Part shown: positions 1 through 27,954 of the stretch, piece after piece
Layout: every line of letters starts with the position of its first letter
Numbering within the stretch: position 1 is the stretch's first letter
NCBI GenBank assembly: GCA_025360715.1
Contig: JANYBS010000073.1
Coordinates: 3,048 to 67,047 of the forward strand
Origin: Candidatus Eiseniibacteriota bacterium
GTDB lineage: Bacteria > Eisenbacteria > RBG-16-71-46
Length of the DNA stretch: 64,000 bases
Direction: 5' to 3'
Made by a program: the position numbers and the translations under genes
Notes under the pieces: generated by a model
Databases searched by the model: none
What the model saw: the letters and a program-made list of their open reading frames with translations, nothing else
What the model was told of the DNA's origin: nothing

Positions 1-3000
1 AGCATGACCGCGCTCCGAGCGAAAACCACCTTGCAGAGGTCATAGATGGACCTCTCCGGAGATAGTTGAGCCCCATACGTCGAGACCTGATCGGCAAGGA
101 AGCGGGACATGAGCGCGCGCACCTTCGCCTCTTCGAGCCCGATACCTTCGGGCGAGACCTGCTTGTCGTCCCCGACCACGAGCAGCTTCTTTGCACGAAG
201 CAGTGCTGGCAAAGCTGTCAGATCGGACTGAGATGCTTCATCGATGATCACTAGATCAAAGATGCCCAGCTCGGCTGGAAGGGATTCTGAGACGCGGTAG
301 TGCGCCATGATCCAGCAGGGCACGGCCGTGCTCGCCTTGTCGGCCGCAACTTGGGCGTCCTTGCGGTAACGAATCGCTCGTTTGCCAGAGCCGGTCCCTC
401 CACGAAGTTTAAGGATCGCGGTGAGGTAGGCCGCCAGGGCGGCCTTTGTGCTCGGGGAAGCGTTCTCGGCCAAGCGTAGCCATGTGCGCTTCACTACAAC
501 CATCTCGTAGGACTTCGCCAAGTCGCTCGCTGCAACTTCGCGCTTGGCGGAGAACTCACGAAGTTGTTGGGCGCCCTCAATCGAATCGAGATGAGTGGCC
601 AGTCGGCGAAGTCGCCACTTCGACCTCCAAGTGGAGGGCAGCAGGGGGTCAATCGTCCCAAGCATGGGTTTGCGAAGCTCCTCTGCGAGCAGGGGAGCGC
701 CGGAGGCCGAAATGCTCTCAGTAACTTCAGCGACCGTGTTGAGGTGCGTGGAGAGGCCGTGAACACGAGACAGCTCTGCCAAGAGCTCAGACCAGGCAGT
801 CTGCATGTCTGTGTCGAGCAGCTCGGGACTACCAAGCTGCGCGGAAATGAACTGCCTGAGCGACTGGCTTATGGCGCCACGTCTCGAGGTCAGGACATCA
901 AGGCACTTCTCCTTGTTGCTCCAAGTGCTCTCGAGCCTGCGTCTTGTTAGGTGATGATTTAGGTAGGCGGCGAGTGAATCGAGCCCTTTCGTACCGTCCA
1001 GTATTTCGGCGGAGAACTGTACAGACGGAAACAGAGTGGTGGCATCCGCAAGACAAGAGGACTCAAGCTCGACGAGTGTTCGAATTCGCCGCAGAAAGTC
1101 GATTGACCTGATCGCGGCGAGGCCATCGTCGGCGCCTTCGCCAGACAACCGCTGCAAAGGGAGCTCTGAGGCAAGCGCATTCCAACGGATCGATATCGCA
1201 GACAGGGCGGTACGCACACTGAGGTAGCTTTCGACGTGCTCCCACGCTTCAACGTCCTCGGGCACACGTCCCAGTACTCTAATGCTCTTCAGCCGGTTCT
1301 TCTGCTCCGACTTGCCGAGCAAGCCGCTCAGCCCGAACGCGCGCTTGCCCTCGGAAAGGCGCCCTATGGCTTCCGTAAGATCACTGTCGAATTCGGCCCC
1401 TTCGGGGAGGAGTACAGGCCGCGAGAGTAGTGCGGTGTGCCGGGCGCCCACTCGACTTGCTTCCGCCTGAAGTGCGTCAACTTCACCAAGAAGCTGGTCA
1501 AGCCCCCCCGTCCTCAGTTTCGAGCGTACGTCTTGGCGCCAGTCACTCTCACCGGTCAAGAGCTCGGCTCGTTCTGTGCGCAGTTGGCGAGTCCTCTCGG
1601 CGAGTTCATGCGCAAGCGTGAAGACCTCATCATCTCCGCCGGCGAGCACTGGAACGTCGCCCGAAGCAACCTCGCGCTTCAGCCTCTCGTGCTGCGAGAG
1701 ATCCTGATGCACTGACAGCATTGTGCGAGGGTCGGGGAAATCCGCGCCGAGGGGTAGCGAGGCCCCGAGGTATCCGATGTCCACGCCGAGCTCGCGCCTT
1801 GCTTCTCGAAGTCGTGTCACCTCGACATCGCCAAATTGCGGCGAATGTTCGCTACCGACACCGATCAAGTCAGGCAACCAGCCGAGGTAGTCCAGGCTGT
1901 CTACGACTTGTCTCGCGGCCTCCTCCGGCCGAATGGTCTCACCATCGAGCTCGATGTTGGTGAGATTACGAGTTGCCCAATCGGTGACTTGGTGATCGAT
2001 TGCCGATAGCTGGCCATGCAGGCTCTCGATGCGGGCGTCGAGGTCTCGGATGTCCTTCTGCGTTGCAACGCGATCGAGGCTTTGAACCTCGGCGGCGATC
2101 CTGTTTACCGCGTGCTCGAACTGCTGGAGTCCCTGGTGCTCGCTGCTAAGTAGTGAGATCGCGAGTGGGCGGATGTCGGGAGGCAGCTTCTCCTGAACCT
2201 CTTTAAGGGCCGGGTCCTTCATCGATGTGACCAGCACTCGCTTTCCAAGCGCGAGGTAGTGACAGACCACGTTGGCGATTGTGTGCGTTTTCCCGGTGCC
2301 AGGAGGGCCCTGCACTACAACGCCGTCTGACTTCTCGAGCAGCTGGATAATTCGAATCTGCTCGGCATTGTAGGGTTTGGGAAAGTACAACTCCTGTGGG
2401 GTAGAACCCCTCGGACTGCTGGAGTATGCCCCACGAAACGCAGGGAGCTCAGGGTCCGAGGCATCTTCCGAAGGTTCCGTGACCAGTTCCGCCACTGCTG
2501 CGGGGAGGTCACTCGCTTCCTCGGTCCTGGATCGCAGCTTGAGCAGATCCTCAATCAGTATGCTTGCCGTCCGGGGGCGAGCAAACAGCACCCACGTGTC
2601 CGTTACTCGAAGATTCCGCTCGGCCTTCGGAACAGATCTGTCACCCGGTTGAGCATGCTCGGGCCAATACGCGCCGTGGTCGTGCAAGTGCGTGCTGGCG
2701 GAGCGAAGTACTGGCTCAAAGGTGCCTCGGTCGAAAGGCGAGAACGTGGTTGTGGCCGCGCCAAAAAAGGTCTTTGCTGCCTGCTCAAGGTCCCCTACGC
2801 CGGCGCCCTCGAGGTGCGACGCCCATTCCAGCTCCAGGCGCGCGCCGGCTTCGCGCGGCCGGACTTCAAGTCGGGCGGAATCGCGATCGATCGAGATCTC
2901 AACTCTGCGCGTAATGAGAGGGTACATGACTGTTCCTTCGGGCAGCTCCCAACTGGCCACCCCGACACCCCAGACAAGCTCCATTGGCGTGTCACCGACA

Positions 3001-3554
3001 TTTCCCGCTTGCTGCTGTTGGACCTTGAAAAGCTGCGAGTAGAGCTTGATTGCTTCTCTGCGGAGTCGCTCGGCTCGTGCCCACGGCTGCCACTTCGTGT
3101 CAATGTACTGCGTCAACTGACCACGAACCGCTGGAGCATTCAGGAAGCTATTCATAGGGACTGTGGCGTCCGGGGTCACGCTAGGAAGGGCCGAACGACT
3201 TCTGTCCCTAGAAGACCGATGAGTTCCGGCCGCGATCAAGTCTGAGCCAAGGATAGAAACCGACAGCTCTGGCTGCTTGTCGGGTCCAGCGTGGAGCACC
3301 AGCCACGGCCTCAAGACGGGACCGACGTCCTTGGGAGGGCGGGTTTCGTGTAGGCGCTCGACAACAAGCCATCGCTCGTCGGAGTTTGAATCCGCATCTG
3401 CGTTCAGTGCGACGCCCGGGAGGGTTCGGACCTGCGCTTCCCAGAGCACAAAGGCTTGGTACCCAGCGACCGTGAGGGCGGGGCGCGATCGAAGACGCGC
3501 AGAGTGCTGCGCGAAATCGATAATCGAAAGCAGGCGGTCCTTCTCAATGCCCAT
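1..3554 (-). CDS. Large SF1 (Upf1/AAA_11-AAA_12-like) helicase, N-terminal ~1184 aa; C-terminus lies beyond the window start
   Basis: My own minus-strand translation is open from an ATG at 3552-3554 (in-frame stop at 3663-3665 upstream; GGAG about 10 nt before the ATG) down to position 1. Motif Q/I is ...[31 protein letters not shown] encoded near 2290-2400. Walker B and motif III are ...[37 protein letters not shown] encoded near 120-260. The six-frame track does not list it because the stop is off-window. The plus-strand ORFs across 446-3245 are antisense artefacts. Confidence 0.7.
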
Positions 3555-3722
3555 TGGGCTTGGCTCCGAAAGCGCCGGTGCTTCGTAGTGTCTTTCCGCC
3601 GGCCGGCAGAGGGCGCAGAGTTGGCAGACGTGAGGGAAGGAAAGCTGTCGAGGCGGGCAAAGTCAAGAAGGCACGCCGGGCCTCCGAATCCTCAGCGCGT
3701 GGTATCCGAATCCAGCCTATAC

Positions 3723-3887
3723 CGCGAGAGCCAAGTTGCCTGCGAATTCCTTCGAGGCACGCGTGCATGCCGCTACGAGCCCGAGATCCAGCGCAGCTAC
3801 GAGGAGCTGGCACGCCACTACGGCACGGTGATCCTGCCCGCGCGCCCGGCGCATCCGCGTGACAAGGCCAAGGTCGAGGTGGAGTAG
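3723..3887 (+). pseudogene. IS21-family transposase IstA fragment (remnant)
   Basis: The tail of ORF 3456..3887 reads ...[40 protein letters not shown]. This matches, from memory, the conserved PRDKAKVE (DDE catalytic-E) region of IS21 IstA. Only about 50 aa are present, with no istB and no N-terminal domains. Confidence 0.4.
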
Positions 3888-4270
3888 CCCCGATTTCGTG
3901 GACGGTTGAGGACTGCGGGGGTTGGCTGCCGCGCCTTGCTGCGATCCTTCGTGAGCAGCGCGAGCGCACGTCGGCATTCGAGCGCGAGGCAGGGCAGGTG
4001 GTCCGCTGGGTCTTCCATCGCAACGGCCACCAGGTTGGCGACTACAGCGACTCGTGGGGCACGGCGTGCAAGAAGGCGGGAGTCCCCGGCCGCCTGGTCC
4101 ATGACCTGCGCAGGACCGCCGTGCGCCGCCTCGAGCGCGCGGGCGTGCCGCGGTCGGTCGCCATGAAGCTGACCGGGCACAAGACCGAGAACGTCTACCG
4201 CCGCTACGCGATCGTGTCGGAGTCCGATCTTGCGCTCGGGGTCGCCAAGGTGGCTGCGCTGGACGGCGCG
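3863..4270 (+). pseudogene. Tyrosine recombinase (phage-type integrase) C-terminal fragment, N-terminally truncated
   Basis: The frame opens right after the stop at 3860-3862, and the track ORF 3998..4492 starts at a GTG. The sequence ...WLPRLAAILREQRE...GRLVHDLRRTAVRRLERAGVPRSVAMKLTGHKTENVYRRYAIVSESDLALGV carries the HxLRHT-like box and the catalytic Tyr region of integrases. The N-terminal ~250 aa of a normal integrase are missing. The ORF tail 4270-4492 shows no integrase similarity and runs into the tRNA. Confidence 0.55.
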
Positions 4271-4435
4271 ACCGCCGCGACTGGCCGGCTTGCAGCGTCC
4301 GGCGAGCCGCGCTCCAACGCGACTAGCACAGTTCTGACACAGTTTGCCGATTCCGAGGCCATAGCCGCGAGCCGTCGCGCGTCGCAACGCTCAGCGATCG
4401 CAAGGAGTTCGGCGATCGAGCCGAGCGGCGGAAAG

Positions 4436-4511
4436 TGGCGTCCCGAACGGGATTCGAACCCGTGTCGCCGCCGTGAAAGGGCAGTGTCCTAGGCCTCTAG
4501 ACGATCGGGAC
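4436..4511 (-). tRNA. tRNA-Glu (anticodon UUC), 76 nt with encoded CCA
   Basis: The reverse complement reads GTCCCGATCGTCTAGAGGCCTAGGACACTGCCCTTTCACGGCGGCGACACGGGTTCGAATCCCGTTCGGGACGCCA. The cloverleaf folds with anticodon loop CTTTCAC and a GGTTCGAATCC T-loop. It is near-identical in pattern to E. coli tRNA-Glu. Confidence 0.9.
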
Positions 4512-4599
4512 GCATAAAGCGACTGCGGGCGGGCACTTTATCTGGCGCGCGCGGCATTCGCAAGTCGCTCGCAGCGTGCGCGCTGCCTGCCGCGCAGCG

Positions 4600-5259
4600 C
4601 TATGCGCCGGCACGCTCGATGCGGGTGTTCAGTTCGAACCGGCATGCGGGCCGCTCGCCGTGCGTGCAGCGCGTGGTCACTTCGGCGCCTACAGCGGCGC
4701 TCACCATGCGGCTTGCAAGTTCGCACGCATCGGCGTGGTCACGCGTCACGTCGCCCAGCGGGCAGTCGTGGCAGCCGATCGTGATTCGGCCGTCGTGGGT
4801 CTCTACTTCTGCGGCGCCGCCTAGCACGGCGAACGCAGCGCGCGCGGCGTCCAAACGTTCTTCCAGCGCCGCGTAGGCAGGGGTTTCCACTGGCAATCGT
4901 GCGGCCACGGCGGCCAAAAAAGCGGTGCGTTCGGCAGCCGAGAAGCGTGCGCGCATCTCTTCGAGGATGGCGCCGATCACCACCGCGTGGCCCTTGGGGA
5001 ACAAGGCTTCTCCGGCGGGGGTCAGTGCATAGATGGCCGAGGGCTTTGCGGCGCTGCGCCGCATCTCGCGCACTTCAGCAAGGCCGTCGCGCTGCAGGGC
5101 TGCAAGGTGCCCGCGCACTGCGTTGCCGGTCAGGCCAAGCGCACCGGCAAGCTCCAGCACGGTGCGCCCGCTGCCCCGCAGCAGCGACAGCAGCGTGGCC
5201 TTCGTACCGCGAAGTGCATTCGTTCGCATAGCTTTGGGCGGACCTTTCGAGCGACTCAT
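4600..5259 (-). CDS. ArsR/winged-helix-type transcriptional regulator with a Cys-rich C-terminal (putative metal/redox-sensing) domain
   Basis: Track ORF of 219 aa. The N-terminal HTH region is LLSLLRGSGRTVLELAGALGLTGNAVRGHLAALQRDGL. The C-terminus carries ...GCHDCPLGDV...C...C...C. It is divergent from the DUF4142 gene. Confidence 0.55.
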   Translation of the reverse strand: MSRSKGPPKAMRTNALRGTKATLLSLLRGSGRTVLELAGALGLTGNAVRGHLAALQRDGLAEVREMRRSAAKPSAIYALTPAGEALFPKGHAVVIGAILEEMRARFSAAERTAFLAAVAARLPVETPAYAALEERLDAARAAFAVLGGAAEVETHDGRITIGCHDCPLGDVTRDHADACELASRMVSAAVGAEVTTRCTHGERPACRFELNTRIERAGA

Positions 5260-5280
5260 GAGCGGCAGTTTGGCACATGC

Positions 5281-5335
5281 ATCAGCTTAAAAACAAGTAA
5301 AACAAGAAAAACATTGATTTACATCTCTAACCATG
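5281..5335. promoter_or_regulatory. AT-rich divergent promoter region between the regulator and the DUF4142-cupredoxin operon
   Basis: cagcttaaaaacaagtaaaacaagaaaaacattgatttacatctctaaccatgc is a striking AT island in a ~70% GC background. It contains TTGATT/TTTACA -35-like hexamers. Confidence 0.35.
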
Positions 5336-5418
5336 CGACACTCGCGATCGCGACGGGGCAGGGGACGCCCACCCATCGCGATCCCCTTGTCGTCCGCTCT
5401 TCTCGTTTGGAGGCTCAC

Positions 5419-5985
5419 ATGTCGCGCTTCTTCCTTCGTTCTCTGCCCGCTGCAATGCCCGCCCTCGCTGCCCTCGCTGCGCTCAGCCTCGTGTTGGCCG
5501 GCCCGCTGCATGCCGCTCCCGCCGCTGCGTCTGCGCTCAGCGATGCCAATATCGCTGCCATCGTGCTTGCGGCGAACACGATCGACATCCACAACGGCGA
5601 ACTGGCCACCAAGCGGTCGCACACGAAAACGGTGCTCGAGTTCGCGCATCGCATGACCACCGACCACGCCTCGGTCAACGCCAAGGCCGTGGCGCTGGCG
5701 ACCAAGCTTTCGCTCACGCCGGTCCCCAACGCGGCGAGCCGCAGTCTTGTGCAAAGCACCGATGCGACACGCGCCAAGATGAGCCGCTTGCGCGGCAGGG
5801 CGTTCGATCGCGCGTACATCGACAACGAGGTCGCCTACCATCAGGCGGTGCTCGATCTACTCGATCACACCATCGTGCCCGCGGTGGAGAATGCCGAGCT
5901 CAAGGACCTGCTGGTCAGTGTGCATCCGGCGTTCGTCGCGCACCTCGAGCACGCGAAGATGGTGCAGGCGGAACTCGCCAAGTGA
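5419..5985 (+). CDS. Secreted DUF4142-family protein
   Basis: ATG at 5419 with GGAGG 6 nt upstream. The signal peptide is MSRFFLRSLPAAMPALAALAALSLVLAGPLHA. The body shows a DUF4142-like pattern (...EFAHRMTTDHASVN...FDRAYIDNEVAYHQAVLDLL...). The track ORF 4987.. is an N-terminal over-extension. Confidence 0.6.
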   Translation: MSRFFLRSLPAAMPALAALAALSLVLAGPLHAAPAAASALSDANIAAIVLAANTIDIHNGELATKRSHTKTVLEFAHRMTTDHASVNAKAVALATKLSLTPVPNAASRSLVQSTDATRAKMSRLRGRAFDRAYIDNEVAYHQAVLDLLDHTIVPAVENAELKDLLVSVHPAFVAHLEHAKMVQAELAK

Positions 5986-6341
5986 ACTCCCGCGCGACGT
6001 GGCTGGTTTGCTGCGCCGCGATCGCGGTGATGCCGCTTGCCCAAGGATGCGCGCCGACGCCGGCGCGTGTCCCCCCGCGGCGCGCACCGCAACGGCACGA
6101 CATCGAGATCCGCGCCATGCGCTTCGTGCCCGATTCGGTGCAGGTGGCGCCTGGCGATACCGTGTGCTGGCGCAATCACGACCTGGTGCCGCACACGGCG
6201 TCGGCGGATTCTGGTGCGTTCGACTCGGGAGTCATCGCGCCGGATTCCGCGTTCACCTGGGTGGTCATGGTGCGTATGCCTTCGGGCTATGCGTGCCGCC
6301 TTCACCCCACTATGCATGCGCGCTGTGAGGTCGCTCCATGA
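5982..6341 (+). CDS. Cupredoxin-like (plastocyanin/amicyanin-type) copper-binding lipoprotein
   Basis: Lipobox MPLAQGCAP. Type-1 Cu ligand pattern His (VPHTAS) ... C-x2-H-x2-M (YACRLHPTMH). It overlaps the upstream stop by 4 nt. Confidence 0.6.
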   Translation: MNSRATWLVCCAAIAVMPLAQGCAPTPARVPPRRAPQRHDIEIRAMRFVPDSVQVAPGDTVCWRNHDLVPHTASADSGAFDSGVIAPDSAFTWVVMVRMPSGYACRLHPTMHARCEVAP

Positions 6342-6934
6342 AGGCCACCGCGGTCACCCTGCTGCCCAGCCGCTTCGGCGATTTTCTCGCACACGCGTAT
6401 CCGGGCGATCATCTTGCGCTGGTCTGCGGCGACGTCGAGGCCGCAGGCCCCGTACTCGTGCGCCTGCATTCGGAGTGCCTCACGGGCGATACGCTGGGTT
6501 CGTTGCGCTGCGACTGCGGCGAGCAGCGCGATGCTGCGTTGCAACGCATCGCGCATGCGCGCCGTGGCGTGTTCCTGTATCTGCGGCAAGAGGGGCGGGG
6601 CATCGGTCTCGAGAACAAGATCCGCGCCTATGCGCTCCAGGACGCTGGCTTCGACACTTTCGCGGCCAATCGCATGCTCGGTTTTCGCGACGACGAGCGC
6701 GATTTCGGCATCGCTGCGGCGATGCTGCTGGGCCTTGGCGTGCGGCGCGTGCGGTTGCTCACCAATAATCCCGACAAAGTGGCGGTGTTGTGCGCTCATG
6801 GCATCGACGTGGTGGCGCGCGAAAGCCTGGTGATGGTCGCCAATCCTCACAACGCCCGCTACCTCGAGGCGAAGCGCGCTCTGGCCGGCCACGCGCTGGG
6901 GGCGCCAGAGTCTAGCGCGCCGGGCTCTTGCTGA
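6338..6934 (+). CDS. ribA: GTP cyclohydrolase II
   Basis: 198 aa. Contains LVRLHSECLTGDTLGSLRCDCG (Zn-binding Cys cluster) and RQEGRGIGLENKIRAYALQD, which are characteristic of RibA. Confidence 0.85.
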   Translation: MKATAVTLLPSRFGDFLAHAYPGDHLALVCGDVEAAGPVLVRLHSECLTGDTLGSLRCDCGEQRDAALQRIAHARRGVFLYLRQEGRGIGLENKIRAYALQDAGFDTFAANRMLGFRDDERDFGIAAAMLLGLGVRRVRLLTNNPDKVAVLCAHGIDVVARESLVMVANPHNARYLEAKRALAGHALGAPESSAPGSC

Positions 6935-8819
6935 GCAGCAGCACGCGACCTTCCTTGATCAGGTTGCGGCGCATCAGGTCGGTCGCGGCGGCTTCGGCGC
7001 TCGCTTCGTCGGTGTAATTGCCGATCACGATCCGGTACATGGTCGTGGAACCGTCCTTGTACGCGACCACGCGGCCCGTCTCCTCGGTCGCGTCGCTCAA
7101 GCGGGCGCGTTCGGTGTCTGCGCGGTCTTGGTCCAGGAACGCGCCCACGGCGATGCCGTACACGCGCAACTCCGCGGGCTTCGCGGGCACGGGCGTCGTG
7201 GCGGGCTTCGCGGCCGCGGCCGCAAGCGTGTCCTTCTTGGGTGTCGTCGTTGCGGCGGTGCTCGCCCGCGTCATCGCCTGCGTGCTATCGCTCGCCGCCG
7301 GCGCAGGCGTCATCGCGGCCTTCGGCGCCGGCACCATCGCCTGACCCGGCGCGGGCAGCGTGCTGCTCGCGCTCGCACCACCGACACCGCGCAGCGGCGG
7401 TAAGTCGATCACGCCAAAGCGCTGCGCCAGTACCAGGCCGATCGCGATGGCGGCAACAAGTGCGACCGCCATGATCACCGGTAGCGGCGAGCGCTTCTCG
7501 GCGTCATCGCGCGCGATGTCGGCTTCGATCTTCTCGCGCAGGCGCGGCGGCAGGTGGCTCAGGTCGGCACGCTCGGGATCTGCGGTCTGGCTGCGGTCGA
7601 GCAACTCCTGCGTGCCCGGAAAGCGCGGCACCATGTCCGACACGGGTTCCTCGGGCTCGATCGACAGCGGCGCGGCGGGCGTCACCGACGACTGGGCCAC
7701 CTCGCGCTTGCGCGCCTCCAACAAGTCGCGCGCGGCGACGGTCCAGGCGTCGACCTCGGTGCGCTCGATCACATCGACGGGCGGCGTCACTGAAACGGAC
7801 TTGGGCGCAGCGGCTGGCGGTGGCGGCGCTTGTGCAGGCGCGGTCACTCGCGGCTCGCTCTCGCGCATGAACTCGGGCGGTGTCCACACAGGCGCGGGCG
7901 CTTCGGGCTCGCGGCGCACCGCCGCCAGCGGGGCCGAATGCTCCAACGCCGGCGGTGTCATATCCTCTTCCTCTGGCAACTTCGCTTGCTCGCCGCCACC
8001 GAGCACGCTGCGGAACTCGGCCTCACGCGCGACCGATTGCACGTGCTCGGGCCGCACAGTGGTCACGCCCTCGGCGTACGCGGTGAGCAGCGCGTGCGAC
8101 GCCACGGTGTTGATCTCGCGCGGGATGCCATGCGTGAGCCGATACACCTCGCGGCACGCATCGGGCGGGAACGTGGACCATGCATTGCCGCCCGCCACCG
8201 AGATGCGATGGTGGATGTAGCCCGCGGTCTCCTCGGGCGAAAGCGGGTTCAGTCGGTAATGCACGGTGATGCGCTGGCGCAGCTGGCGCAGGTCGGGGCG
8301 CGCGAGTTTGGCTTCCAACTCCGGCTGGCCCACGAGGAATATCTGCACCAGCTTCTCGCCAGTGGGAGTCTCCAGGTTCGACAGCAACCGGATCTCTTCC
8401 AAGAGCCCCGGCTCCAGGTTCTGCGCCTCGTCCAGCAGCAGCACGGCGTACTCGCCGCGCGCGCGCACAGTGCTCAGGTGGCGCTCGAGCAGTGCGAGCA
8501 TCTTGGGCTTGCTCGAGCCTTCGGGCAGCGCCACGCCAAAGCGCAGGCAGATTTCTTCGAGCAGCTCTGCGCGCGTGAGCGCCGAGTTCGTGATGAGCGC
8601 CACGCTCACCTGCGCGCCCCATTCGGCGAGCGCGTCATACAACGCTGTGGTCTTGCCGGTGCCGACCTCGCCAGTGATCAGTACGAAGGGCTCGCGGTTC
8701 TCGATGCCATAGCGCAGATGCGCGCGGGCCTCCTGGTGCTCACGGCTCGGGTAGAGGAACCGGAGCTGGTGACCACCGGGAAAAGGATTCTCGCGCAGTC
8801 CGAAGTGAGGTTCGTACAT
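6912..8819 (-). CDS. ExeA/GspA-like AAA ATPase fused to a low-complexity Pro/Ala-rich linker, a TM segment and a C-terminal SPOR (peptidoglycan-binding) domain
   Basis: N-terminus MYEPHFGLRENPF...FVLITGEVGTGKTTAL...LLLDEAQNL (AAA_22/ExeA). TM segment PVIMAVALVAAIAIGLVL. C-terminus YGIAVGAFLDQDRADTERARL...YRIVIGNYTDEASAEAAATDL is SPOR-like. Confidence 0.7.
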   Translation of the reverse strand: MYEPHFGLRENPFPGGHQLRFLYPSREHQEARAHLRYGIENREPFVLITGEVGTGKTTALYDALAEWGAQVSVALITNSALTRAELLEEICLRFGVALPEGSSKPKMLALLERHLSTVRARGEYAVLLLDEAQNLEPGLLEEIRLLSNLETPTGEKLVQIFLVGQPELEAKLARPDLRQLRQRITVHYRLNPLSPEETAGYIHHRISVAGGNAWSTFPPDACREVYRLTHGIPREINTVASHALLTAYAEGVTTVRPEHVQSVAREAEFRSVLGGGEQAKLPEEEDMTPPALEHSAPLAAVRREPEAPAPVWTPPEFMRESEPRVTAPAQAPPPPAAAPKSVSVTPPVDVIERTEVDAWTVAARDLLEARKREVAQSSVTPAAPLSIEPEEPVSDMVPRFPGTQELLDRSQTADPERADLSHLPPRLREKIEADIARDDAEKRSPLPVIMAVALVAAIAIGLVLAQRFGVIDLPPLRGVGGASASSTLPAPGQAMVPAPKAAMTPAPAASDSTQAMTRASTAATTTPKKDTLAAAAAKPATTPVPAKPAELRVYGIAVGAFLDQDRADTERARLSDATEETGRVVAYKDGSTTMYRIVIGNYTDEASAEAAATDLMRRNLIKEGRVLLLSKSPAR

Positions 8820-8975
8820 CGGCGTCTTCCGTGGGTCCGGGAAACTACGAAGGCGTGGGGCCGGAATGGTTATCGGCGCCGGGCGGGGCGCGCTTGCGCG
8901 TCACATTTTCGCGGCGATCTCAGCCCGGGAAAGCAGCGGGACACACGCCCTGGGCCTGCGTCCCGCGCGATGGCC

Positions 8976-9530
8976 TCACTTCTCGGCGGGGAGCAACTCG
9001 TTGATCGTGAAAAGGGACGTATACGGATAGCCGCGCTGCTGGAAGATCTGCGGCGCACCCTGACTGCGGTCAACGACCGCCAGCACGCGCACGACCTCGG
9101 CCTTGTACGACTCGGCGGCCTCGGCGGCGATCAACGCGCTCTCGCCGCTGGTGATCACGTCGTCCAGGATGGCGATGCGCTTGTGGCCGGCAAGGTTGCC
9201 CTCGACCTGGCCGCGCATGCCGTGATCCTTGGCGCTCTTGCGCACCAGAAAGCCCTCGAGCGGCTTGCCCTGCTCGAGGCTGTACCACATGAGCCCGGCC
9301 ACCAGAGGATCGGCGCCAAGGGTAAGCCCGCCGATAGCGGTCACCTCGTCGGCCAGTAGCTGCTCCCAGAACAGGTGGGTGATCAGGCGGAGCCCTTCGG
9401 GGTGCAGGCTCGTCTTGCGCACATCGATGTAGTAGTTCGAGGTGGCGCCGGAACTAAGCACGAATTCGCCGAAGCGCATGGAACGCTCGAGGATGATCTG
9501 GCGCAGGCGGTCACGATCGGTCGTGGACAT
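8976..9530 (-). CDS. pyrE: Orotate phosphoribosyltransferase
   Basis: From the internal ATG at 9530 (MSTTDRDRLRQIILERS...). The PRPP-binding motif is RIAILDDVITSGESAL. The track ORF 8976..9668 is over-extended upstream. Confidence 0.85.
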   Translation of the reverse strand: MSTTDRDRLRQIILERSMRFGEFVLSSGATSNYYIDVRKTSLHPEGLRLITHLFWEQLLADEVTAIGGLTLGADPLVAGLMWYSLEQGKPLEGFLVRKSAKDHGMRGQVEGNLAGHKRIAILDDVITSGESALIAAEAAESYKAEVVRVLAVVDRSQGAPQIFQQRGYPYTSLFTINELLPAEK

Positions 9531-9738
9531 AGGCTCCGCGTGGGGTTGAGGCTGGTCGCGCGCGCGCTGGCCGGGTGACCTGCGCGCACCGGTATCGAGA
9601 AGCGATTCGGCCGGAGTGTGCGTACCTTCGCGCGGGCCGTCAAGCGCACGCGGTGCGCTGTGGCGCAACGGCTTGCCGCCGCGCTAGACTTGACGCCAGC
9701 ACCACATCCCGAGTGTCCTTCCGGCTTCCAAGGAACCC

Positions 9739-12700
9739 ATGCAAGCTCATCCCACGCGACTTCATCCGATCGCCCTGCTGCTGCTTGGCCTGCTGCTGGT
9801 ACCGCCGCTGCCCGCGTATGCTGCGCGACTTGCGTTACCTGTGGCCGTGGCCGGCGCTCCCGCGCCCGCGGCGCCGTACTTTGCGGGTGACCGCCTGCTC
9901 GTGCGCCTGCGCCCTGCGGCCTCGCAGTTCCTGAGCGCTCGCCGCGCGGGGCCCACGCGCTCGGGCTTGCAGATGCGCTCGGGCCTCAACTCGCTCGATG
10001 CGGTGGCGGCCTCTCTGGGCGGCGCCACATTCGAGCCGGAGTTCGTGGGCGAGCACGCGCCGGATCCCGCGAGCGGCGATACACTCGACTTCAGCGCGTT
10101 CATGATCGTGCACATCCCCGAGGGCGCCAGCTTGGAAGCCGCGCTCGAACGCTTCGCGGCCTCGCCCGATGTGATGAGCGCAGAGCCGATTCCCATCACG
10201 CGCACATCGGCGCTGCCCAACGACTCGCTCTTCGCGCAGCAGGTATGGCTGCACAAGGACATCCTGCCGCGAGTCGACAACCGCGTGCTCGATGCGTGGA
10301 GCGTCGAGCAAGGCGATACGAACATCGTGATCGGCGTGGTCGACACGGGCATCATCCCGTACCACCCGGATCTCGGTGGGATCACGGCAGGGCTCACGGG
10401 CAACATGTATGTGAACCGCGCCGAGGCGGGCGGCCTGCCGGGAGTGGACGACGACCACAATGGCTTCATCGATGACGTGGGCGGTTGGGACTTCGTCGCC
10501 AATGCGAGTGCCGCCAGTGCCGCAACCGGCGAGGATTGGCGCGACCAGGACAACGACCCGAACGACTTCGCGGGCCACGGCACCACGGTGGCCGGCGTGA
10601 TCGGCGCGTTGATCGACAACACCATCGGCATGGCGGGCATGGTGCCCAACGCGCGGCTCATGCCGCTGCGCATCGGCTGGCAGCCCGCCGGCGGCACCCC
10701 GCCCAATGGTGACGTGAGCATGGACTACGCCGCGCAGGCGATCCGCTACGCCACGCTCATGCATGTGCAGGTGCTCAACTGCTCGTTCAGCTCGTTGTTC
10801 CTTTCCAGCCTCGACGCCGCAGTCACTGCGGCCTCACGCGCGGGCACGGCGCTGGTGGTGGCATCGGGCAACGGCAATGACCCGGCATATCTGGGCCAGC
10901 GCGAAGATGTGATCGCCGTGGCCGGCGTGGACTCCAGCGACGTGATCTGGCCCGGCTCCGTGCTAGGCGCGTGGGTCGATCTTTCGGCCGATGCCACGGG
11001 TATCGTTTCCACGTTCCTCAAGCGCACGACGCCCGACTCTGTCGGCGCGCGCCAGCCGAGCTATCGCGGATTCCTCAACGGCACCTCTTACGCCGCGCCG
11101 CAGGTGGCGAGTGCGCTCGCGCTCATGCAGGCGCAGCGCCTGCATCAGGGCCGCGTGCCTTACACGGTCGCGGGCGCGGTCATGCGCCTGCGTGAGACCG
11201 CCGACGACATCAGCGCGCTCAACACGGGCACGGGCTATGGCGCGGGCCGGCTCGATGTGTATCGGGCGTTGACCGATCGCACGGGTTCGCTGGCGGTGCG
11301 CACGCGCTCGCGGCAGGTGGGACCGCCCGTGATCCTGCGCGAGAACACCGGGCGCTCGCGCATCCTGATCGCGGCGAACGACAAGACGCTGGTGGCTTAC
11401 GACGGAGCCTCGGGCGATACCCTCTGGCGCGTGGTGCTGCCGGCGGTACCGGCGGGCGACATGGCCGCAGCGCCGATCGGCGCGGGCGTGGTCGGCGTGT
11501 TCATCCCCACTGCGAACGGCCGCGTACTTGGCTATACCAGCGACGGTGTCGTGCTTGCGGGATGGCCGCAAGTGGGCACGTCGGGCCAGCAGATGACGGG
11601 CGGCGTTGCGCTCGGCGACCTCGACGGCGACGGTCTGCCCGAAGTGGTGTGCAGCGCGGTCGATGGCCGCGTCTTCGCATGGCATGCGAACGGCGCGCTG
11701 CTCGCGAACTTCCCGTTCGACATGGGCGTGATCGGCTCGGGCGTGCCGGCGCTGGGCGAGCTCGACGGCGTGCCCGGCGACGAGATCGCGATCGTTGGCG
11801 GTGACAATCAGGTGCACGTGATCACGCAAGCGGGCATCGAGGCGCCAGGCTGGCCCATCGCCGCGCCGCCGGGTACGCGCGCGCCGGTGATCGCGCGGCT
11901 CGGCCACGCGGGTCCGGTCGCGCTGATCGTGGGCGGCAATGGCAGCATCACCGCGTATCGCGGCGATGGCACATCGCTCTGGACGCGCGCGTTCACGGGC
12001 ACGCTGGGGCAGGACCTGGCGCTTGGCGACCTCGACGGCGATGGCGCCGACGAAGTCGTCTATGTGACGGGCGGGCCCACCACGGTGAGCGTGTGCGATT
12101 CGGCGGGTGCGGTTTTCAGCAGACAGAACTGGCCGCTCACACCCACGGGCACGCCAGCCGGCGCGCTTGCGATCGGACCGCTGCGCGCCGGGCACAACGC
12201 GGGCGTGTGCTGGCTGCAGTCCACCGGGCTGGTGGCGTATGACGACAGTGCGCAGGTGGTGCGGTGGGTGCCCAAGAGTGGGATCGCGGGCGTGGCTCCG
12301 GCGCTTGCCGATCTCGACGGCGACGGCGCGACCAAGATCGTGGCGGGCATCGCGCTCGCAGATTCCAACTTGTATGTGTACGACGCGGGCGCGGGCTCAT
12401 TCGATGCAGCCAAGCTCGGCTGGCCGACGCCGCGCGGCGACGAATCGCGGCGTGCGAATCACGCCTCGCCGCCGCTGCTCGGCGTGATCGATCGCATCCG
12501 GCCGGCGCGCGTGAACGATCTTGTGGCGCAATCGCTCACCACCACGAGCGCGCGAGTCACTTGGACCATGACGGGCGACGACAGCCTTGCCGGCGCGGCG
12601 AGCGCCACCGAGTTGCGCTACGCCGCTTTCCCGCTCGATGCGAGCAACTTCATCGCGGGGCAGCGGGTACTCGCAACGCCGGTGGGCGCGACTGGCACGC

Positions 12701-14209: not shown

Positions 14210-16267
14210 ATGCAATGGCAACCCACACGGGCCATTGCGACCTGCTTGGCAACAGGGCTGGCTTTGGCGCTCTCTGCGGTGGCCGGGTTCGCCGCCCCAG
14301 CGCCGCCGCATGCCCCAGAGTTGGGCGCGGCGTTCTTGCGCGCGCCGCTCGCCGGCGCCTTGGTGATCACCGACGGCTTCGGCGCGGTGCGCAGCAACCA
14401 CTTCCACGCGGGCGTCGACCTATCGACCGGCGGCCGCGTGGGCGCCGATGTCTTTGCGCCGCTGCAATGCACGCTCGTGCGCGTGCGCGCGTCGGGCGCT
14501 GGGTACGGCCGCAGCCTCTATCTGATGTCGGGGGACGGTCGCATGATCGTGTTCGGCCACCTGGATGCCTTTGCGCCCGCTGTCGCGGCGTACGTGGACT
14601 CCGCACAGCGCGCGAGCGGCCGCTACGAGCAGGACCTGCAGCCCGCGCCCGGCCGGTTCGCTTTTGCGGCCGGTGAACGTGTGGCGTGGAGCGGCGAGAG
14701 CGGCGATGGGCCGCCGCACCTGCATATGGAAGTGCGCCATGGTGATTTCGCGTTGCATCCGCTGCTCGCGGGACTCCATATGGATGACCGCGATCCGCCC
14801 GTGCTTGATGCGCTCACGTTGGAGCCGCTCGAGGCGGGCTCGTTCGCGCAAGGGCTGGCGTCGCCGGTCACGCGCGCGCTTACGGGCATCGCGGCCGAGA
14901 CGCTCATCGTGCAGGGCCGCGTTCGCGCGGTCGTGCGCGCACACGATGTGATGGGTGCCGCCACGGCGCTGCCGCCGTGGTCGGTGCAGATGGACTACGC
15001 CGGGCAGACGACCACCGCAGCGTTCGACTCGATCTCGTGGGATGGCGAGATGTCGCAGCTGGGCATGGTGATCGACCGTGGCCGCATCGCGGGCGGGGAC
15101 GGAGTCATCCTCGACGCGCCCGAAGGCGTGCGCCCGCGATTCCTGAGTGGGGGAGATCCCGCTGCAGCAAGCAAGCGCTTGGGCGTGATCGCATTGCAAG
15201 CCGGCGAGCCCGCGCGTGCGCTCACGCTCACGGTGTGGGACGCCGCAGGCAACGCGGCCACGCGCAAGATCTACCTGCGTGGCCCGCGCGCGGGTGAGGG
15301 GCCGGACACCACGCAGGCACATGGCCTCAAGCCGCCGGTGGGCGCACCGCGCTGGACGTACGCGTCGTTGCCCGACAAGTGGGTGCGCGTGCGCGTGTCG
15401 AACGTGCCTGCCGGGCTCATGCAAGCGCGCATCGAGCGTGGCCGCGACAGCGACGAGGGCCACGCAGCCACGTGGGACGGCAGCGGCTGGAGCGCGCTCG
15501 TGCGCTGCAAGGGTATACCCGATGAAGATGGCTTCTGGTTCAAGGCGAAAGACAAGACCGGCAAGGCGTGGTGGACTCGCGGCAGCGTCACACTCTGGCC
15601 CGCGGGCGCCGATCTGCCGATCGACCAATCGCCACTCACGCGTGTGTCGCTGCTGCCCACGCGCGTGTTCGAAGGTGGCGTGGTCATGGGGGCGCTGCGC
15701 ACGGCTGTGAGCGCGTCCAAGGGCGAATGGCATGCGATGACGCCGGTGGTCTCGCTCGAGCCCTCGGACTGGCCGCTCGCACAGACCGCCACGGTCACGC
15801 TCAAGGCGCCCGACGGCATGGCGCTCGATCACCTGGTCGCCGCGCGGCGCAGCGGCGATGGCGAGACGTGGGAGTGGGCCAAGTCGACTTACGACGCCGC
15901 AACGCGCGTATTCACCATGGAGAGCGCGAGCTTCGGGCAGTTCGCGCTCATGCACGACACCACGCCGCCGCGCGTGACGCCGCTGACGCCGCCGCGCGTA
16001 GCGCTGGCCGGTGCGTACTCGCGCTGGGCGCTCACGGCCGCGGTGAGCGATGCCGGTAGTGGCATCGACCGCGAGACGAGCGCGTTCCAGGTGGACGGCG
16101 AACGCGTGCCCACCGAGTACGATGCCGAGGCGCACGTGCTGCGGTGGCGGGCCTTGCGGCCGCCGGCCGCCGGCCGCCACACCTACACCGTGGAAGTCGC
16201 CGACCGGGCGGGGAACCGCACGCGGAGCAGTGGTGTCTTTGTGCTAGATTCGGCGGCACATCACTAA
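14210..16267 (+). CDS. Secreted M23-family (LytM-type) metallopeptidase with a large C-terminal extension
   Basis: Signal peptide MQWQPTRAIATCLATGLALALSAVAGFA. The sequence contains HFHAGVDL and GESGDGPPHLHMEV (the HxxxD/HxH motifs of M23). Confidence 0.75.
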   Translation: MQWQPTRAIATCLATGLALALSAVAGFAAPAPPHAPELGAAFLRAPLAGALVITDGFGAVRSNHFHAGVDLSTGGRVGADVFAPLQCTLVRVRASGAGYGRSLYLMSGDGRMIVFGHLDAFAPAVAAYVDSAQRASGRYEQDLQPAPGRFAFAAGERVAWSGESGDGPPHLHMEVRHGDFALHPLLAGLHMDDRDPPVLDALTLEPLEAGSFAQGLASPVTRALTGIAAETLIVQGRVRAVVRAHDVMGAATALPPWSVQMDYAGQTTTAAFDSISWDGEMSQLGMVIDRGRIAGGDGVILDAPEGVRPRFLSGGDPAAASKRLGVIALQAGEPARALTLTVWDAAGNAATRKIYLRGPRAGEGPDTTQAHGLKPPVGAPRWTYASLPDKWVRVRVSNVPAGLMQARIERGRDSDEGHAATWDGSGWSALVRCKGIPDEDGFWFKAKDKTGKAWWTRGSVTLWPAGADLPIDQSPLTRVSLLPTRVFEGGVVMGALRTAVSASKGEWHAMTPVVSLEPSDWPLAQTATVTLKAPDGMALDHLVAARRSGDGETWEWAKSTYDAATRVFTMESASFGQFALMHDTTPPRVTPLTPPRVALAGAYSRWALTAAVSDAGSGIDRETSAFQVDGERVPTEYDAEAHVLRWRALRPPAAGRHTYTVEVADRAGNRTRSSGVFVLDSAAHH

Positions 16268-16338
16268 GCGCACGCTCCGGTTCTGGACCTGCGTCCGGTC
16301 GTCCCCACCGTCGCCACCGCCTCGCGCAGGACGCGCCC

Positions 16339-19300
16339 ATGAAGCATTCCGATTTCGTTCATCTGCATAACCATAGCGACTACTCGCTGCTGGATGGCGC
16401 TTCGTCCATCCAGGGCATGGTTCATCGTGCCGCCGAGCTGCAGATGCCCGCGCTCGCGCTCACGGACCATGGCGTCATGTTCGGTGCCATCGAGTTCTAT
16501 AACGAGGCGCGCAAGGCCGGCATCAAGCCCATCGTGGGCATGGAAGCCTATGTCACGCGCGGTGCGCGCAGCGCCCGCACTCGCGACGACAAGGCGCACC
16601 ATCTGGTGCTGCTCGCTCGCGACGAAGTGGGCTTCCATAACCTGATGCGGCTCTCGAGCCTGGCGTATCTCGAAGGCTTCTATTACAAGCCGCGCGTGGA
16701 CCACGAGATCCTGAGCCGTTTTTCACAAGGCATCCTCGCGCTGAGCGCGTGCCCGCAGGGCGAGATCGCCGCGGATCTCTTGGATGATCGCGACGAAGAG
16801 GCGCTCAAGACCGCGATGATGTATCGCGACATCTTCGGGCCCGAGAACTACTTCCTTGAGATCCAGAACCACGGCCTCGAGATCGAGACCAAGATCCGCG
16901 GCAAGGTCGAGCAGCTCGCACGCAAGACGGGTCTGCCGCTCGTGGCCACGAACGATTGCCACTACATCGGCAAGGACCACACCGAGGCGCAGGATGTACT
17001 GATCTGCATCCAGACCGGTAAGACGGTCAGCGAAGCGCAGCGCATGCGCGCACTGGCCGAGCTGCACTTCCGCACGCCCGACGAGATGCGCCTCGCGTTC
17101 CCGGATCATCCCGAAGCGATCGCGAACACGCTCGCGGTCGCGGAGCGTTGCAACCTGCAGCTGCAGCTGGGCAAGTTCCTGCTGCCGGAGTTCCCGTTGC
17201 CCGAAGGGTGGGCGAGCGCCGAGGAGTACTTTCGCGACCTGTCGTGGCGCGAACTCAAGGAGCGCTTCCGCGGGCAGGTGACCGACGAGAGGAAGACGCG
17301 CTTCGCGTACGAACTCGACGTGATCTGCAAGATGGGCTTCGCGTCGTACTTCTTGATCGTGCGCGACTTCATCAACTACGCGAAGTCGAACGGCATCGGC
17401 GTCGGCCCGGGCCGTGGCTCGGTGGCCGGTTCGCTGGTGGCCTTCGCGCTGCGCATCACGGATGTGGATCCGCTCAAGCATGGCCTCATCTTCGAGCGCT
17501 TCCTGAATCCGGAGCGCGTGACGATGCCCGATATCGATATCGATTTCGACGATCTTCGCCGCGGCGAAGTCATCGACTACGTGAAGCGCAAGTACGGCGA
17601 GACCAACGTCACGCAGATCATCACCTTCGGCACCATGGGCGCCAAGGGTGTGGTGCGTGACGTTGGCCGTGCGCTGGGCTTTCCGGTGGCCGAGGTCAAC
17701 TCGATCGCCAAGATGGTGCCCGATGGCCTGGGCATGACGCTCGAGCAGGCGCTGCAGGATTCGCCGGACTTGAAAGCGCTGCCCTCCAAGGGCGCTGACT
17801 ACGCGAAGCTGCTCAAGACCGCGCGCGTGCTCGAGGGCCTGGCGCGGCATGCGTCCACGCACGCGGCTGGTGTGCTGATCACGCCGGGGCCGCTGCTCGA
17901 CTATGTGCCGCTGTATCGCCAGAAAGACGGCTCGACCACGACCCAGTGGGATATGAAGTCGGTCGAGAAGGCGGGGCTGCTCAAGATGGACTTCCTCGGG
18001 CTGCGCACGCTGAGCGTGCTCGCCGAGGGCCTGCGCTTGGTGGAGAAGCACCACGGTCAGGTGATCGATTGGCAGGCGCTCGAGTTCGACGATCCGGCGG
18101 TCTACAAGCTCTTCCAGGAAGGCGACACGGTCGCGATCTTCCAGTTCGAGTCGCCGGGCATGCGCGACTACCTCAAGCGACTCAAGCCGACGGTGTTCGA
18201 GGACCTGGTCGCGATGAACGCGCTCTACCGCCCGGGCCCCATCGAGAACATCCCTTACTTCGTCGATTGCAAGCATGGCGTGAAGATCGCGAAGTATGAC
18301 CACGCCAAGCTCGAGCCGATCCTCAAGGGCACCTACGGCGTGTTCGTCTACCAGGAACAGGTCATGGGCGCCGCCCACGACCTGGCCGGCTTCTCGATGG
18401 CGCAAGCAGACGAGCTGCGCCGCGCCATGGGTAAGAAGAACGTCGAAGAGATGCAGAAGAAGCGCACCCAGTTCATCGAGGGCTGCGCGAAGAGCTCGAG
18501 GATCTCGGAGAAGGTCGCGGACAAGATCTTCACGACGATGGAGAAGTTCGCGGGCTACGGGTTCAACAAGTGTGTTTTAGAGAAAACGGAAATATTTAAT
18601 TTCGATACTGGTGAGAGAACCACGGTAGGCGAACTTTTCCGCAGCAAGCGCGAGTTCCATATTCACGCACTCGACAATCAATGGAAGTTGGTCCGACGCG
18701 CCGTGACCGACGTGGTGTGGAATGGGGTGAAGCCGGTCTTCGAGTTGAAGACCCTGCTCGGCCACCGCATCACCGCAACGTCCAATCACCCGTTGCGGAC
18801 ACTCGATGGATGGACCGACCTGGGAGACCTGAAGCCCGGGGACCACATCGCAGTCCCGCGCCGACTGGATATCGCCGGAGATCTGACCTGGCCGCGGCAT
18901 GAGATCATCACGCTCGCCGGATTGCTCGCTGAAGGCAATACCTGTCATCCTTCGACACTCTACTTCTACGGAAATGATCGCGTGCTCGTCGAAGATCTCC
19001 GCGACGCGGTGGCTTGCTTCCCGGATACGGTTGCGCGCATCCACGATCGCGGAGACGGTCGACTCGAGGTAGCGGCGAACCTCGGTGCCGGGTATGCCCG
19101 AGAGGGCGATGAAGCAGGCTGCGGGCTCGCTTCGCTGCACGGCAATCTCGCAGTAGTGATGGAAGCGTTGCCGCGCCGTTGCGGCGCATTCCAGTGGGCA
19201 CAACGTTTGGGCATCATCGGGAAAAAGGCGACCGAGAAGGTCGTGCCGCCGGACGTATTCCGATTGTCTGAAGCAGATCTGGAACTGTTTGTTGGACGGC

Positions 19301-22311: not shown

Positions 22312-22479
22312 ATGGCACTGAGTCCCGAGCTTCTCAACATCCTGGTCTGCCCCGCATGCAAGGGTGATCTTGCCTACGACACCACCGCGCAGACGCTCAC
22401 GTGCAATGCCTGCCGGCTCAAGTACAAGGTCGTCGACGATATCCCGGTCATGCTCCCCGAAGAGGCGGAGAAGTTCTGA
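22312..22479 (+). CDS. Trm112/UPF0434-family small zinc-ribbon protein
   Basis: 55 aa: [60 protein letters not shown] sits 6 nt upstream of the ATG. The track ORF 22093.. is over-extended. Confidence 0.6.
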
Positions 22480-22502
22480 CCCCCTCGGGTCGGGCGACCG
22501 CG

Positions 22503-26888: not shown

Positions 26889-26995
26889 AACACCCACTCG
26901 AGAGTTTTTTTCGGGAGAAATCCAAAGCGTCGCGGTGTAGTACCCCGGGCAACGTCTCCCGCTCGCAGGGTTCGCGATCTCTCAGAGGAGTATCT

Positions 26996-27946: not shown

Positions 27947-27954
27947 TCGAATCC

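Follow-up and report, generated by a model that had tools for sequence, protein, structure and literature searches.

Organization of the tRNA-Glu locus

We examined 64,000 nucleotides (nt) of contig JANYBS010000073.1 from Candidatus Eiseniibacteriota bacterium (hereafter the window, meaning the whole stretch of DNA analysed), with attention to its first 4.5 kb, where an intact tRNA-Glu(UUC) gene is followed on its 3′ side by remnants of a tyrosine integrase and of an IS21-family transposase and by the beginning of a giant Upf1-like superfamily 1 (SF1) helicase gene. The tRNA gene, which we identify as the integration target, was found at 4436-4511 on the minus strand by ARAGORN and Rfam (tRNA, 58.1 bits); it encodes its CCA, its 3′ end at 4436 faces the lower coordinates, and it was the sole tRNA detected by ARAGORN within the 64-kb window. 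Moving outward from this end are: (i) a C-terminal fragment of a tyrosine integrase (3920-4270, plus strand, as delimited by PF00589 and tblastn); (ii) an internal fragment of an IS21-family IstA transposase (3735-3884, plus strand), of which the core at 3759-3881 is supported by a hidden Markov model (NF033546); (iii) a low-GC region upstream of the helicase (3555-3734, GC about 0.62) with no recognisable coding homology; and (iv) the first 1184 codons of the helicase gene (3-3554, minus strand), as judged by the open reading frame (ORF), motifs and AAA_11 match. No promoter-like sites were found in 3555-3734, and scans for promoters, terminators and Rfam families over 3300-4700 and 1-10000 detected the tRNA only. 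An earlier reading made from the letters of this DNA (the sequence-only reading) had placed an N-terminally truncated integrase pointing toward the tRNA at 3863-4270, an IstA fragment of about 50 amino acids (aa) at 3723-3887 and an SF1 helicase of more than 1180 aa beyond them. These coordinates proved right to within a few tens of bases, and all four features were recovered where that reading had put them, including the tRNA.

The integrase fragment matched the Pfam family Phage_integrase (PF00589) with an E-value of 6.9e-6 and 26.4 bits against a cutoff of 27.1, over profile positions 109-168 of 172. Its frame opens at 3863 and spans 3863-4492, running on into the tRNA gene, while homology to related integrases extends over about 3920-4270 (by tblastn, residues 96-286 of integrase P0122 and residues 98-209 of P0124). 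The fragment points at the tRNA 3′ end, located 166 nt past 4270. The catalytic residues of the HxxR box (HDLRRTAV), the GH motif (KLTGHKT) and the Tyr (YRRYAIVSE) are kept; the fragment lacks Arg I, the beta-hairpin Lys and the N-terminal domain, and the catalytic set R-K-H-R-H/W-Y is thus incomplete. The integrase is nonfunctional because it is truncated. The IS21 match (transpos_IS21, NCBIfam NF033546, E-value 1.2e-10) covers window positions 3759-3881 on the plus strand and profile positions 191-232 of 294, and at 41 bits against a cutoff of 160 it represents only about 41-50 aa of IstA. Similarity to IstA could be followed by eye from about 3735, and a stop codon stands at 3885-3887. Neither IstB nor terminal inverted repeats were found for this fragment, which is therefore not a complete IS21 element.

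Several smaller observations concern the DNA between and around these remnants. The integrase frames in the window (3998-4492) and in a related locus, L123 (integrase P0122), have no stop codon before the tRNA and run 50-60 nt into it, with a shared run-on tail WRP(E/Q)RDSN(P/S)CRRRERAVS (P0122 tail, WRPQRDSNSCRRRERAVS); this could reflect nothing more than a frame running on through high-GC DNA, or a genuine overlap between the integrase gene (int) and the attachment site (att). Two CACAGTT heptamers (4327-4333 and 4338-4344, together 4327-4344 on the plus strand) lie 11 nt apart and about 92-109 nt from the tRNA 3′ end. The pair is kept in the window, in the outer integrase copy of a second related locus (L120) and in L123, and partly in the inner copy of L120, and is conserved between loci that are otherwise only about 70% identical; the heptamers may be arm-type binding sites of the integrase. 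The spacer at 4290-4435 is about 92% identical between the window and L120. A 16-nt inverted repeat (3592-3607 and 4420-4435, 14/16 matching) flanks the IS21 and integrase remnants, with its right arm abutting the tRNA. This repeat was considered as a boundary and set aside as probably due to chance, as it does not reach into the tRNA and ten such pairs, this one included, occur within 6 kb.

The helicase gene is compositionally foreign

The sequence-only reading had taken the helicase gene for mobile cargo, and its composition is indeed atypical. The gene has a GC content of 0.60 and a GC content at third codon positions (GC3) of 0.672, compared with a GC3 of 0.81-0.87 in at least nine core genes. 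The bulk of the window has a GC content of 0.65-0.72, compared with 0.58-0.63 over positions 1-3700. The helicase gene is clearly foreign by this measure, with a GC3 near that of an intein in DnaE (0.72), a known mobile insert within the same window. The two remnants are host-like in GC3 (0.87 for the integrase and 0.88 for IstA), and the step in GC content falls at about 3600-3750, between the IstA scrap and the helicase.

A giant SF1 helicase of an uncharacterised family

On the minus strand, the helicase frame stays open between 3662 and base 3, with the first ATG at 3554-3552, and comprises 1184 codons without a stop or frameshift before the gene runs off the window. Pfam AAA_11 was detected at an E-value of 4.6e-16 (59.8 bits against a cutoff of 27), together with SF1 motifs I (GPPGTGKT, aa 416-423, at 2309-2286), II (DEASQ, aa 1105-1109, at 242-228) and III (VGDDKQ, aa 1127-1132, at 176-159). 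An insertion of about 680 aa separates motifs I and II within RecA1. The closest sequences in the PDB were those of IGHMBP2 and Upf1, and the motor is therefore Upf1-like, of the SF1B class.

When homologs were counted at an E-value of ≤1e-10 among 8000 scored candidates, 3408 proteins matched the helicase. The top 120 matches covered 100% of the fragment at 50-54% identity (best 54%), were mostly 1500-1800 aa in length and came from Nitrospirota, Vicinamibacterales, Krumholzibacteriia, Syntrophobacteraceae, Spirochaetia and other taxa. No homolog of greater than 54% identity was present among 5.8 billion clusters, and in a metagenome search identity did not exceed 54% for full-length matches or 74% for short, partial ones. 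Near-identical fragments of the helicase were not found, with the proviso that the matches listed were of at most about 1.75 times the query length, such that fragments of 260-650 aa could be missed. The window helicase shares about 48% identity with each of the 58 aligned homologs, which average 74% identity to one another; it therefore forms a deep branch beside a tightly conserved, horizontally spread clade.

The full-length homologs, of about 1770 aa, have a split AAA_11, an AAA_12 (RecA2) domain, an MTES_1575 nuclease domain (PF18741) at about aa 1400-1490 (E-values of 1e-29 to 1e-31) and a weak, sub-threshold match to DUF3320 at about aa 1611-1651. AAA_12 was detected in all of them, and the corresponding part of the window gene lies past base 1. 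A C-terminal MTES_1575 nuclease would, by comparison with these homologs, also be expected in the window gene, with the nuclease half outside the window. The N-terminal domain of about 390 aa (encoded at 2385-3554, minus strand) is conserved across the family and is without a known fold or Pfam family: the N-terminal 390 aa gave no Pfam or PDB sequence match, and an AlphaFold (AF2) model built from 59 sequences, with a mean predicted local distance difference test (pLDDT) score of 80 and a predicted template modelling (pTM) score of 0.71, had no Foldseek match in the PDB at an E-value of ≤0.001. The one weak match of this model, in a viral library, was to an unnamed 'AAA domain protein'. The same domain starts proteins of 1500-1900 aa in 953 clusters at 50% identity.

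Genomic habit of the helicase family

In five unrelated contexts, the neighbours of the helicase homologs were defence or mobile genes. These included toxin-antitoxin pairs (ParE, PemK, HigB), HEPN proteins, a DUF1156/DUF499/SNF2 cluster, a WYL regulator, a type IV restriction-like enzyme, genes of the Schlafen-like (SLFN), NERD and MazG-like types, a resolvase and ArdC, and IS3, IS21 and DDE transposases. No flanking ORF was conserved across 21 homolog loci, and no tRNA was found within 10 kb of the helicase homologs (0/28 loci). Together, the lack of a shared neighbour and of a tRNA suggest a self-contained gene that moves between islands. The likeness to helicases that recur in anti-phage defence islands, which the sequence-only reading had pointed out, was thus borne out at the level of the family, whose members stand alone among genes for toxin-antitoxin, restriction, WYL and Schlafen-like proteins and for transposases.

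IS21 elements recur around the helicase family. In one locus (L112, 15344-17723), a complete IS21 element (IstA of 496 aa and IstB of 251 aa) follows the helicase homolog P0066 by 150 nt. This homolog is shorter than the others (1730 aa) and is without the C-terminal match to the anti-phage protein model ProA described below; it may have been clipped by the IS21 element.

Relationship to known helicase-nuclease defence proteins

Partial similarity was found to the defence models PDC-S37, Hhe and MkoA in PADLOC and to ProA, Hhe and PLuB in NCBIfam. The best NCBIfam match was to ProA (NF058533, 'anti-phage protein ProA', a model of 1903 positions), in an alignment that takes in the helicase, insertion, nuclease and C-terminal region (model positions about 650-1900) and leaves the N-terminal ~640 positions of the model unmatched. 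The window fragment scored 105 bits and its homologs 210-240 bits against a cutoff of 1500. Assignment of the helicase to ProA was therefore rejected, the score being far under the cutoff and the match not full-length.

Hhe (NCBIfam NF042953, PADLOC PDLC02194) is a single-gene anti-phage protein that combines a DUF4011 helicase with a Vsr-like nuclease. Like Hhe, the proteins of this family are giant single polypeptides with a split AAA_11 carrying a long insertion, an AAA_12 domain and an MTES_1575/DUF559 nuclease, encoded as stand-alone genes in defence islands. Unlike Hhe, they have no DUF4011 match and carry a different domain over the N-terminal 390 aa; moreover, the window fragment scored 69.9 bits and the full-length homologs 136-149 bits against a cutoff of 2000. 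Membership in Hhe was rejected on these two grounds. Five other proteins with the N-terminal domain scored 218-292 bits with ProA and were also far under both the ProA and Hhe cutoffs.

The best PADLOC match was PDC-S37 (PDLC05009), with E-values of 8.5e-30 for the fragment and 4.5e-76 for homolog P0003. This match covers the C-terminal half of the helicase and the nuclease but is partial (101-255 bits on a 1550-position model), and PDC-S37 is a candidate system that has not been validated. A literature search found no paper on ProA and nothing on PDC-S37.

A further comparison is provided by the MTES_1575-type proteins, in which HEPN and transglutaminase domains are joined to an SF1 helicase, a Vsr restriction endonuclease (REase) and two winged helix-turn-helix (wHTH) domains; in the MTES_1575 protein the wHTH part of the helicase, Vsr REase and wHTH module overlaps DUF3320 (Anantharaman et al. 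2013, PMC3710099). The SF1 helicase, the Vsr-fold nuclease and the weak sub-threshold DUF3320 match of the homologs are in common, whereas HEPN and transglutaminase domains were not detected here and the N-terminal domain is an unrelated module. The window helicase adds a new and divergent member to an uncharacterised family, one that is related to the helicase-nucleases known from defence.

tRNA-Glu is a recurrent integration site in relatives

A search with the integrase fragment returned the window's own ORF (P0121, 3998-4492) and many integrases of 56-76% identity. Members of this integrase family were present at the tRNA-Glu 3′ end in three independent loci: the window, L123 and L120, the last with two copies. 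The L123 integrase (P0122) is 62% identical to the window fragment, and tRNA-Glu(UUC) ends this locus according to ARAGORN. An 8.5-kb contig with the same integrase carries, in order, AdoHcyase, two small ORFs, a 212-aa ORF, int, an AAA_22 gene (729 aa), a 184-aa gene and a large plus-strand gene cut by the contig end; it is known from gene order alone, and the tRNA-Glu between int and AAA_22 is deduced from L123. The right side of this contig matches the ExeA-like, 184-aa and S8-peptidase genes of the window in order, strands and lengths, and to the left of int is a housekeeping gene within about 2 kb and no helicase.

The closer relative carries an integrase (P0217, loci L120-L122) that is 86% identical to that of the window. 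L120 aligns to window positions 4055-4448 at 88.7% identity, an alignment that takes in the integrase remnant, the spacer and the final 13 nt of the tRNA. The similarity is then interrupted by 2.1 kb of different sequence, in which lie a Laminin_G_3 gene and another integrase remnant, truncated and frameshifted, and resumes at 88.9% identity over window positions 4427-4540, corresponding to the complete tRNA-Glu and its flank. The 2.1-kb insert is bounded by a 22-nt direct repeat (2153-2174 and 4277-4298 of L120, 20/22 identical) with the sequence GGCGGAG(A/T)(G/A)TGGCGTCCCCAAC, made up of 9 nt of flanking DNA and the tRNA 3′ end. Its counterpart in the window, an att-core equivalent at 4427-4448, consists of the last 13 nt of the tRNA (4436-4448, TGGCGTCCCGAAC) and 9 nt of 3′ flank (GGCGGAAAG). 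This att-type repeat in L120 reveals tandem accretion, and the lineage therefore has an active hot spot for integration at this site. The outer copy of the L120 repeat runs on into a degenerate pseudo-T-arm (GAGAATTCGAACC).

Across 70 aligned codons of the integrase, the window and L120 differ by 18 synonymous and 3 nonsynonymous changes, and the lesion in the L120 integrase (a 1-nt insertion) is different from that of the window. The excess of synonymous changes and the separate lesions indicate that the integrases were selected until recently and decayed independently. To the left of 4055, the window and L120 are unrelated in nucleotide sequence, and L120 and L121 encode secreted proteins with type IX secretion system (T9SS) tails, not the helicase, outboard of the older remnant. 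The helicase is thus absent from the visible flank of 2-3 kb in two relatives (89% and 71% nucleotide identity in the integrase region). Within the 64-kb window, no second att copy (a direct repeat of the tRNA 3′ end) was found, and the segment runs off window base 1. No empty site from the same species was found; a scan of genome contigs with the regulator returned no match, and the RibA matches among GTDB species representatives were of at most 65% identity and from unrelated taxa.

Two further observations were made on the tRNA gene. First, the window tRNA-Glu has G8 (4504) and C65 (4447), compared with C8 and G65 in L120 and L123, and this paired change sits just inside the 13-nt att core. 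Second, at least nine Logan contigs from at least seven sequencing runs (loci L001, L002 and L115-L119), about 99.8% identical to the window on the regulator side of the tRNA, all end at 4476 inside the tRNA. The shared stop was considered as a sign of a variable island and discarded, as it fits a shared tRNA k-mer and not an att junction. It is probably caused by the presence in the samples of a second tRNA-Glu with a different base at position 6 of the tRNA (in a graph with k=31) and is uninformative on the island.

Origin of the locus

We propose, with a probability of roughly 70%, that the tRNA-Glu 3′ end is an integration hot spot at which an integrase wreck and an IS21 scrap now lie beside an imported, intact helicase-nuclease gene of defence type. 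According to this proposal, an element with a tRNA-Glu-associated tyrosine integrase would first have integrated, leaving int beside the tRNA and reading toward it. The integrase would then have been inactivated by loss of everything upstream of about the HxxR box region, including Arg I, a loss associated with insertion of an IS21 element, itself later deleted down to about 150 bp. Directly outboard, an intact gene would have been gained horizontally from a donor of lower GC content, encoding a protein predicted from the homologs to be of about 1770 aa, with the N-terminal domain, an Upf1-like SF1B helicase with the ~680-aa RecA1 insertion, an MTES_1575 nuclease and a weakly matched DUF3320 region. 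In the absence of a functional integrase, excision of the segment is no longer possible, and the segment would thus be fixed in the chromosome.

The sequence-only reading had described a tRNA-targeted integrative element with a destroyed integrase and the helicase as its cargo. The site, the decay of the integrase and the foreign nature of the helicase stand; the helicase may have been cargo of the same element, and its separate arrival at the hot spot appears about as likely.

Islands that sit at a tRNA gene, encode a tyrosine integrase and accrete in tandem at a single tRNA are familiar from the P4-type and related islands. Insertion at the 3′ side of the tRNA, an integrase gene beside the tRNA, cargo of foreign composition, a direct repeat of the tRNA 3′ end (here in the relative L120), a decayed integrase and insertion sequence debris are all shared with these. 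The locus is unlike them in that the remnant integrase is host-like in composition and the cargo is not, and in that the integrase frame enters the tRNA gene.

A number of points weigh against the proposed origin and the defence role of the helicase. The remnants and the helicase differ in GC3 (0.87-0.88 and 0.67), and their histories may differ; the absence of a tRNA at the 28 homolog loci means that the helicase is not habitually cargo of tRNA islands; and no att repeat is seen in the window, with the far boundary lying past base 1. The relatives used for comparison are not very close (89% and 71% nucleotide identity) and not conspecific, and only 2-3 kb of their outboard flank are visible. 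On the side of the protein, the nuclease half lies outside the window, and the scores with the validated Hhe and ProA models are far under the cutoffs.

Separate arrivals, taken as a full explanation, would make the integrase a relic of an older, clade-native element and the helicase DNA a later acquisition by another route, whether a second element in tandem at the same tRNA, an IS21-associated event or hot-spot recombination. We regard this account as possible but do not favour it. The difference in GC3, with a step in GC content between the remnants and the helicase, is what two histories would leave, although islands are often compositional mosaics and the difference alone does not split the events. 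A direct case of tandem accretion at this tRNA is provided by L120, which shares the integrase remnant with the window only from 4055 rightward and is wholly different leftward; a newer tandem element, however, is normally proximal to the tRNA, as it is in L120, whereas here the low-GC, seemingly newer helicase is outboard, and there is no second att copy between the integrase remnant and the helicase. The complete IS21 element beside the helicase homolog in L112 and the lack of tRNA linkage of homologs elsewhere are consistent with routes of this kind.

It is highly improbable that the helicase is an ancestral chromosomal gene separated from the tRNA by pseudogene debris that came to lie there by chance. 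The ORF is intact, and giant DUF4011-type helicases can be conserved core genes that flank defence hot spots, as at cDHS1 of P. aeruginosa (PMC10250203), a precedent for such an origin. Nonetheless, the GC3 of 0.67 against 0.81-0.87, the absence of any homolog above 54% identity among 5.8 billion clusters, the absence of the gene from the corresponding flank in two relatives, and the patchy, multi-phylum distribution of a family whose members are 74% identical to one another and about 48% identical to the window protein all argue against it. An assembly artefact, in which the left ~3.7-4.4 kb would derive from another organism of the metagenome joined via the tRNA or the IS21 scrap, is equally improbable: the helicase is unlike the rest of the window in composition, the independent same-species Logan contigs (at least nine, 99.8%) all stop in the tRNA at 4476, and no near-identical helicase or integrase-remnant ORF was found in those runs, but L120 independently joins a window-like integrase remnant to a window-like tRNA-Glu plus 29 nt of 5′ flank, the integrase remnant is host-like in GC3, the IstA piece is an internal scrap of about 150 bp between non-IS DNA and unlike a join through a shared IS copy, the stop at 4476 would be expected from a second tRNA-Glu differing at position 6 in a k=31 graph, and the protein searches have length blind spots (listed matches ≤~1.75 times the query length).

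Predicted function and significance of the helicase family

By analogy with related proteins, the imported helicase is most likely a single-gene defence protein that targets nucleic acids. As in Hhe-type proteins, the SF1B motor would load onto foreign nucleic acid and translocate 5′-3′, and the fused Vsr-fold nuclease would cut foreign DNA; the C-terminal DUF3320 (wHTH) region would add DNA binding, and the N-terminal domain would serve as a sensor or regulator. More tentatively, the helicase/Vsr-like nucleases of about 1770 aa might constitute an unrecognised, widespread single-gene immune system distinct from Hhe and ProA, in which the N-terminal domain (at least 953 clusters) would be a new sensor that licenses the helicase-nuclease on foreign nucleic acid, and of which the window copy would be a deep-branching variant.

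The island itself is of an ordinary and well-understood kind, a textbook case that adds little on its own. What the locus documents is tRNA-Glu(UUC) as a recurrent site for one integrase family, with tandem accretion and independent integrase decay, in a sparsely sampled lineage of high GC content with genes for type IX secretion. The cargo is more useful than the island, as it points to a large uncharacterised family of stand-alone helicase-nuclease giants that are defence-like in their genomic habit. This family resembles the validated proteins Hhe and ProA in the helicase-nuclease core only, and its N-terminal domain is without structural or functional annotation; should the family protect against phages, this domain would represent a new sensor module for the helicase-nuclease class of immune proteins.

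Other features of the window

The rest of the window consists of housekeeping and lineage-typical genes, including those for RibA, an ExeA-like AAA_22/SPOR protein, DnaE, AccA, the hut genes, a DinG-like helicase, PilB- and PilC-like proteins, PorV and several proteins with T9SS-type tails. Between the 5′ side of tRNA-Glu and the ExeA-like gene is a four-gene block (4600-6934) that encodes an ArsR/SufR-like regulator, a DUF4142 protein, a cupredoxin-like protein and RibA, with a slightly low GC3 (0.75-0.79) in three of the four genes. In the syntenic contig of the relative with integrase P0122, the ExeA-like gene directly follows int and the overlapping tRNA-Glu deduced for this site, with no such block between them; the block may represent another, older insertion, on the opposite side of the tRNA.

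The DnaE gene (DNA polymerase III alpha; 16144-21123, plus strand) is interrupted at about 18604-19920 by an intein with a LAGLIDADG homing endonuclease (Intein_splicing, aa 821-1259; LAGLIDADG_3, aa 1049-1126). The GC3 of the intein is 0.72, compared with 0.85-0.87 in the exteins, and the intein accounts for the low-GC dip at 18-19 kb. Finally, a Gemmatimonadota-like or other FCB-group affiliation of the organism is suggested by a GC content of about 68% together with two regions (22401-31356 and 46061-47809) in which the type IX secretion protein PorV is encoded beside a C25 (gingipain-like) peptidase and proteins with FG-GAP/FlgD_ig tails.

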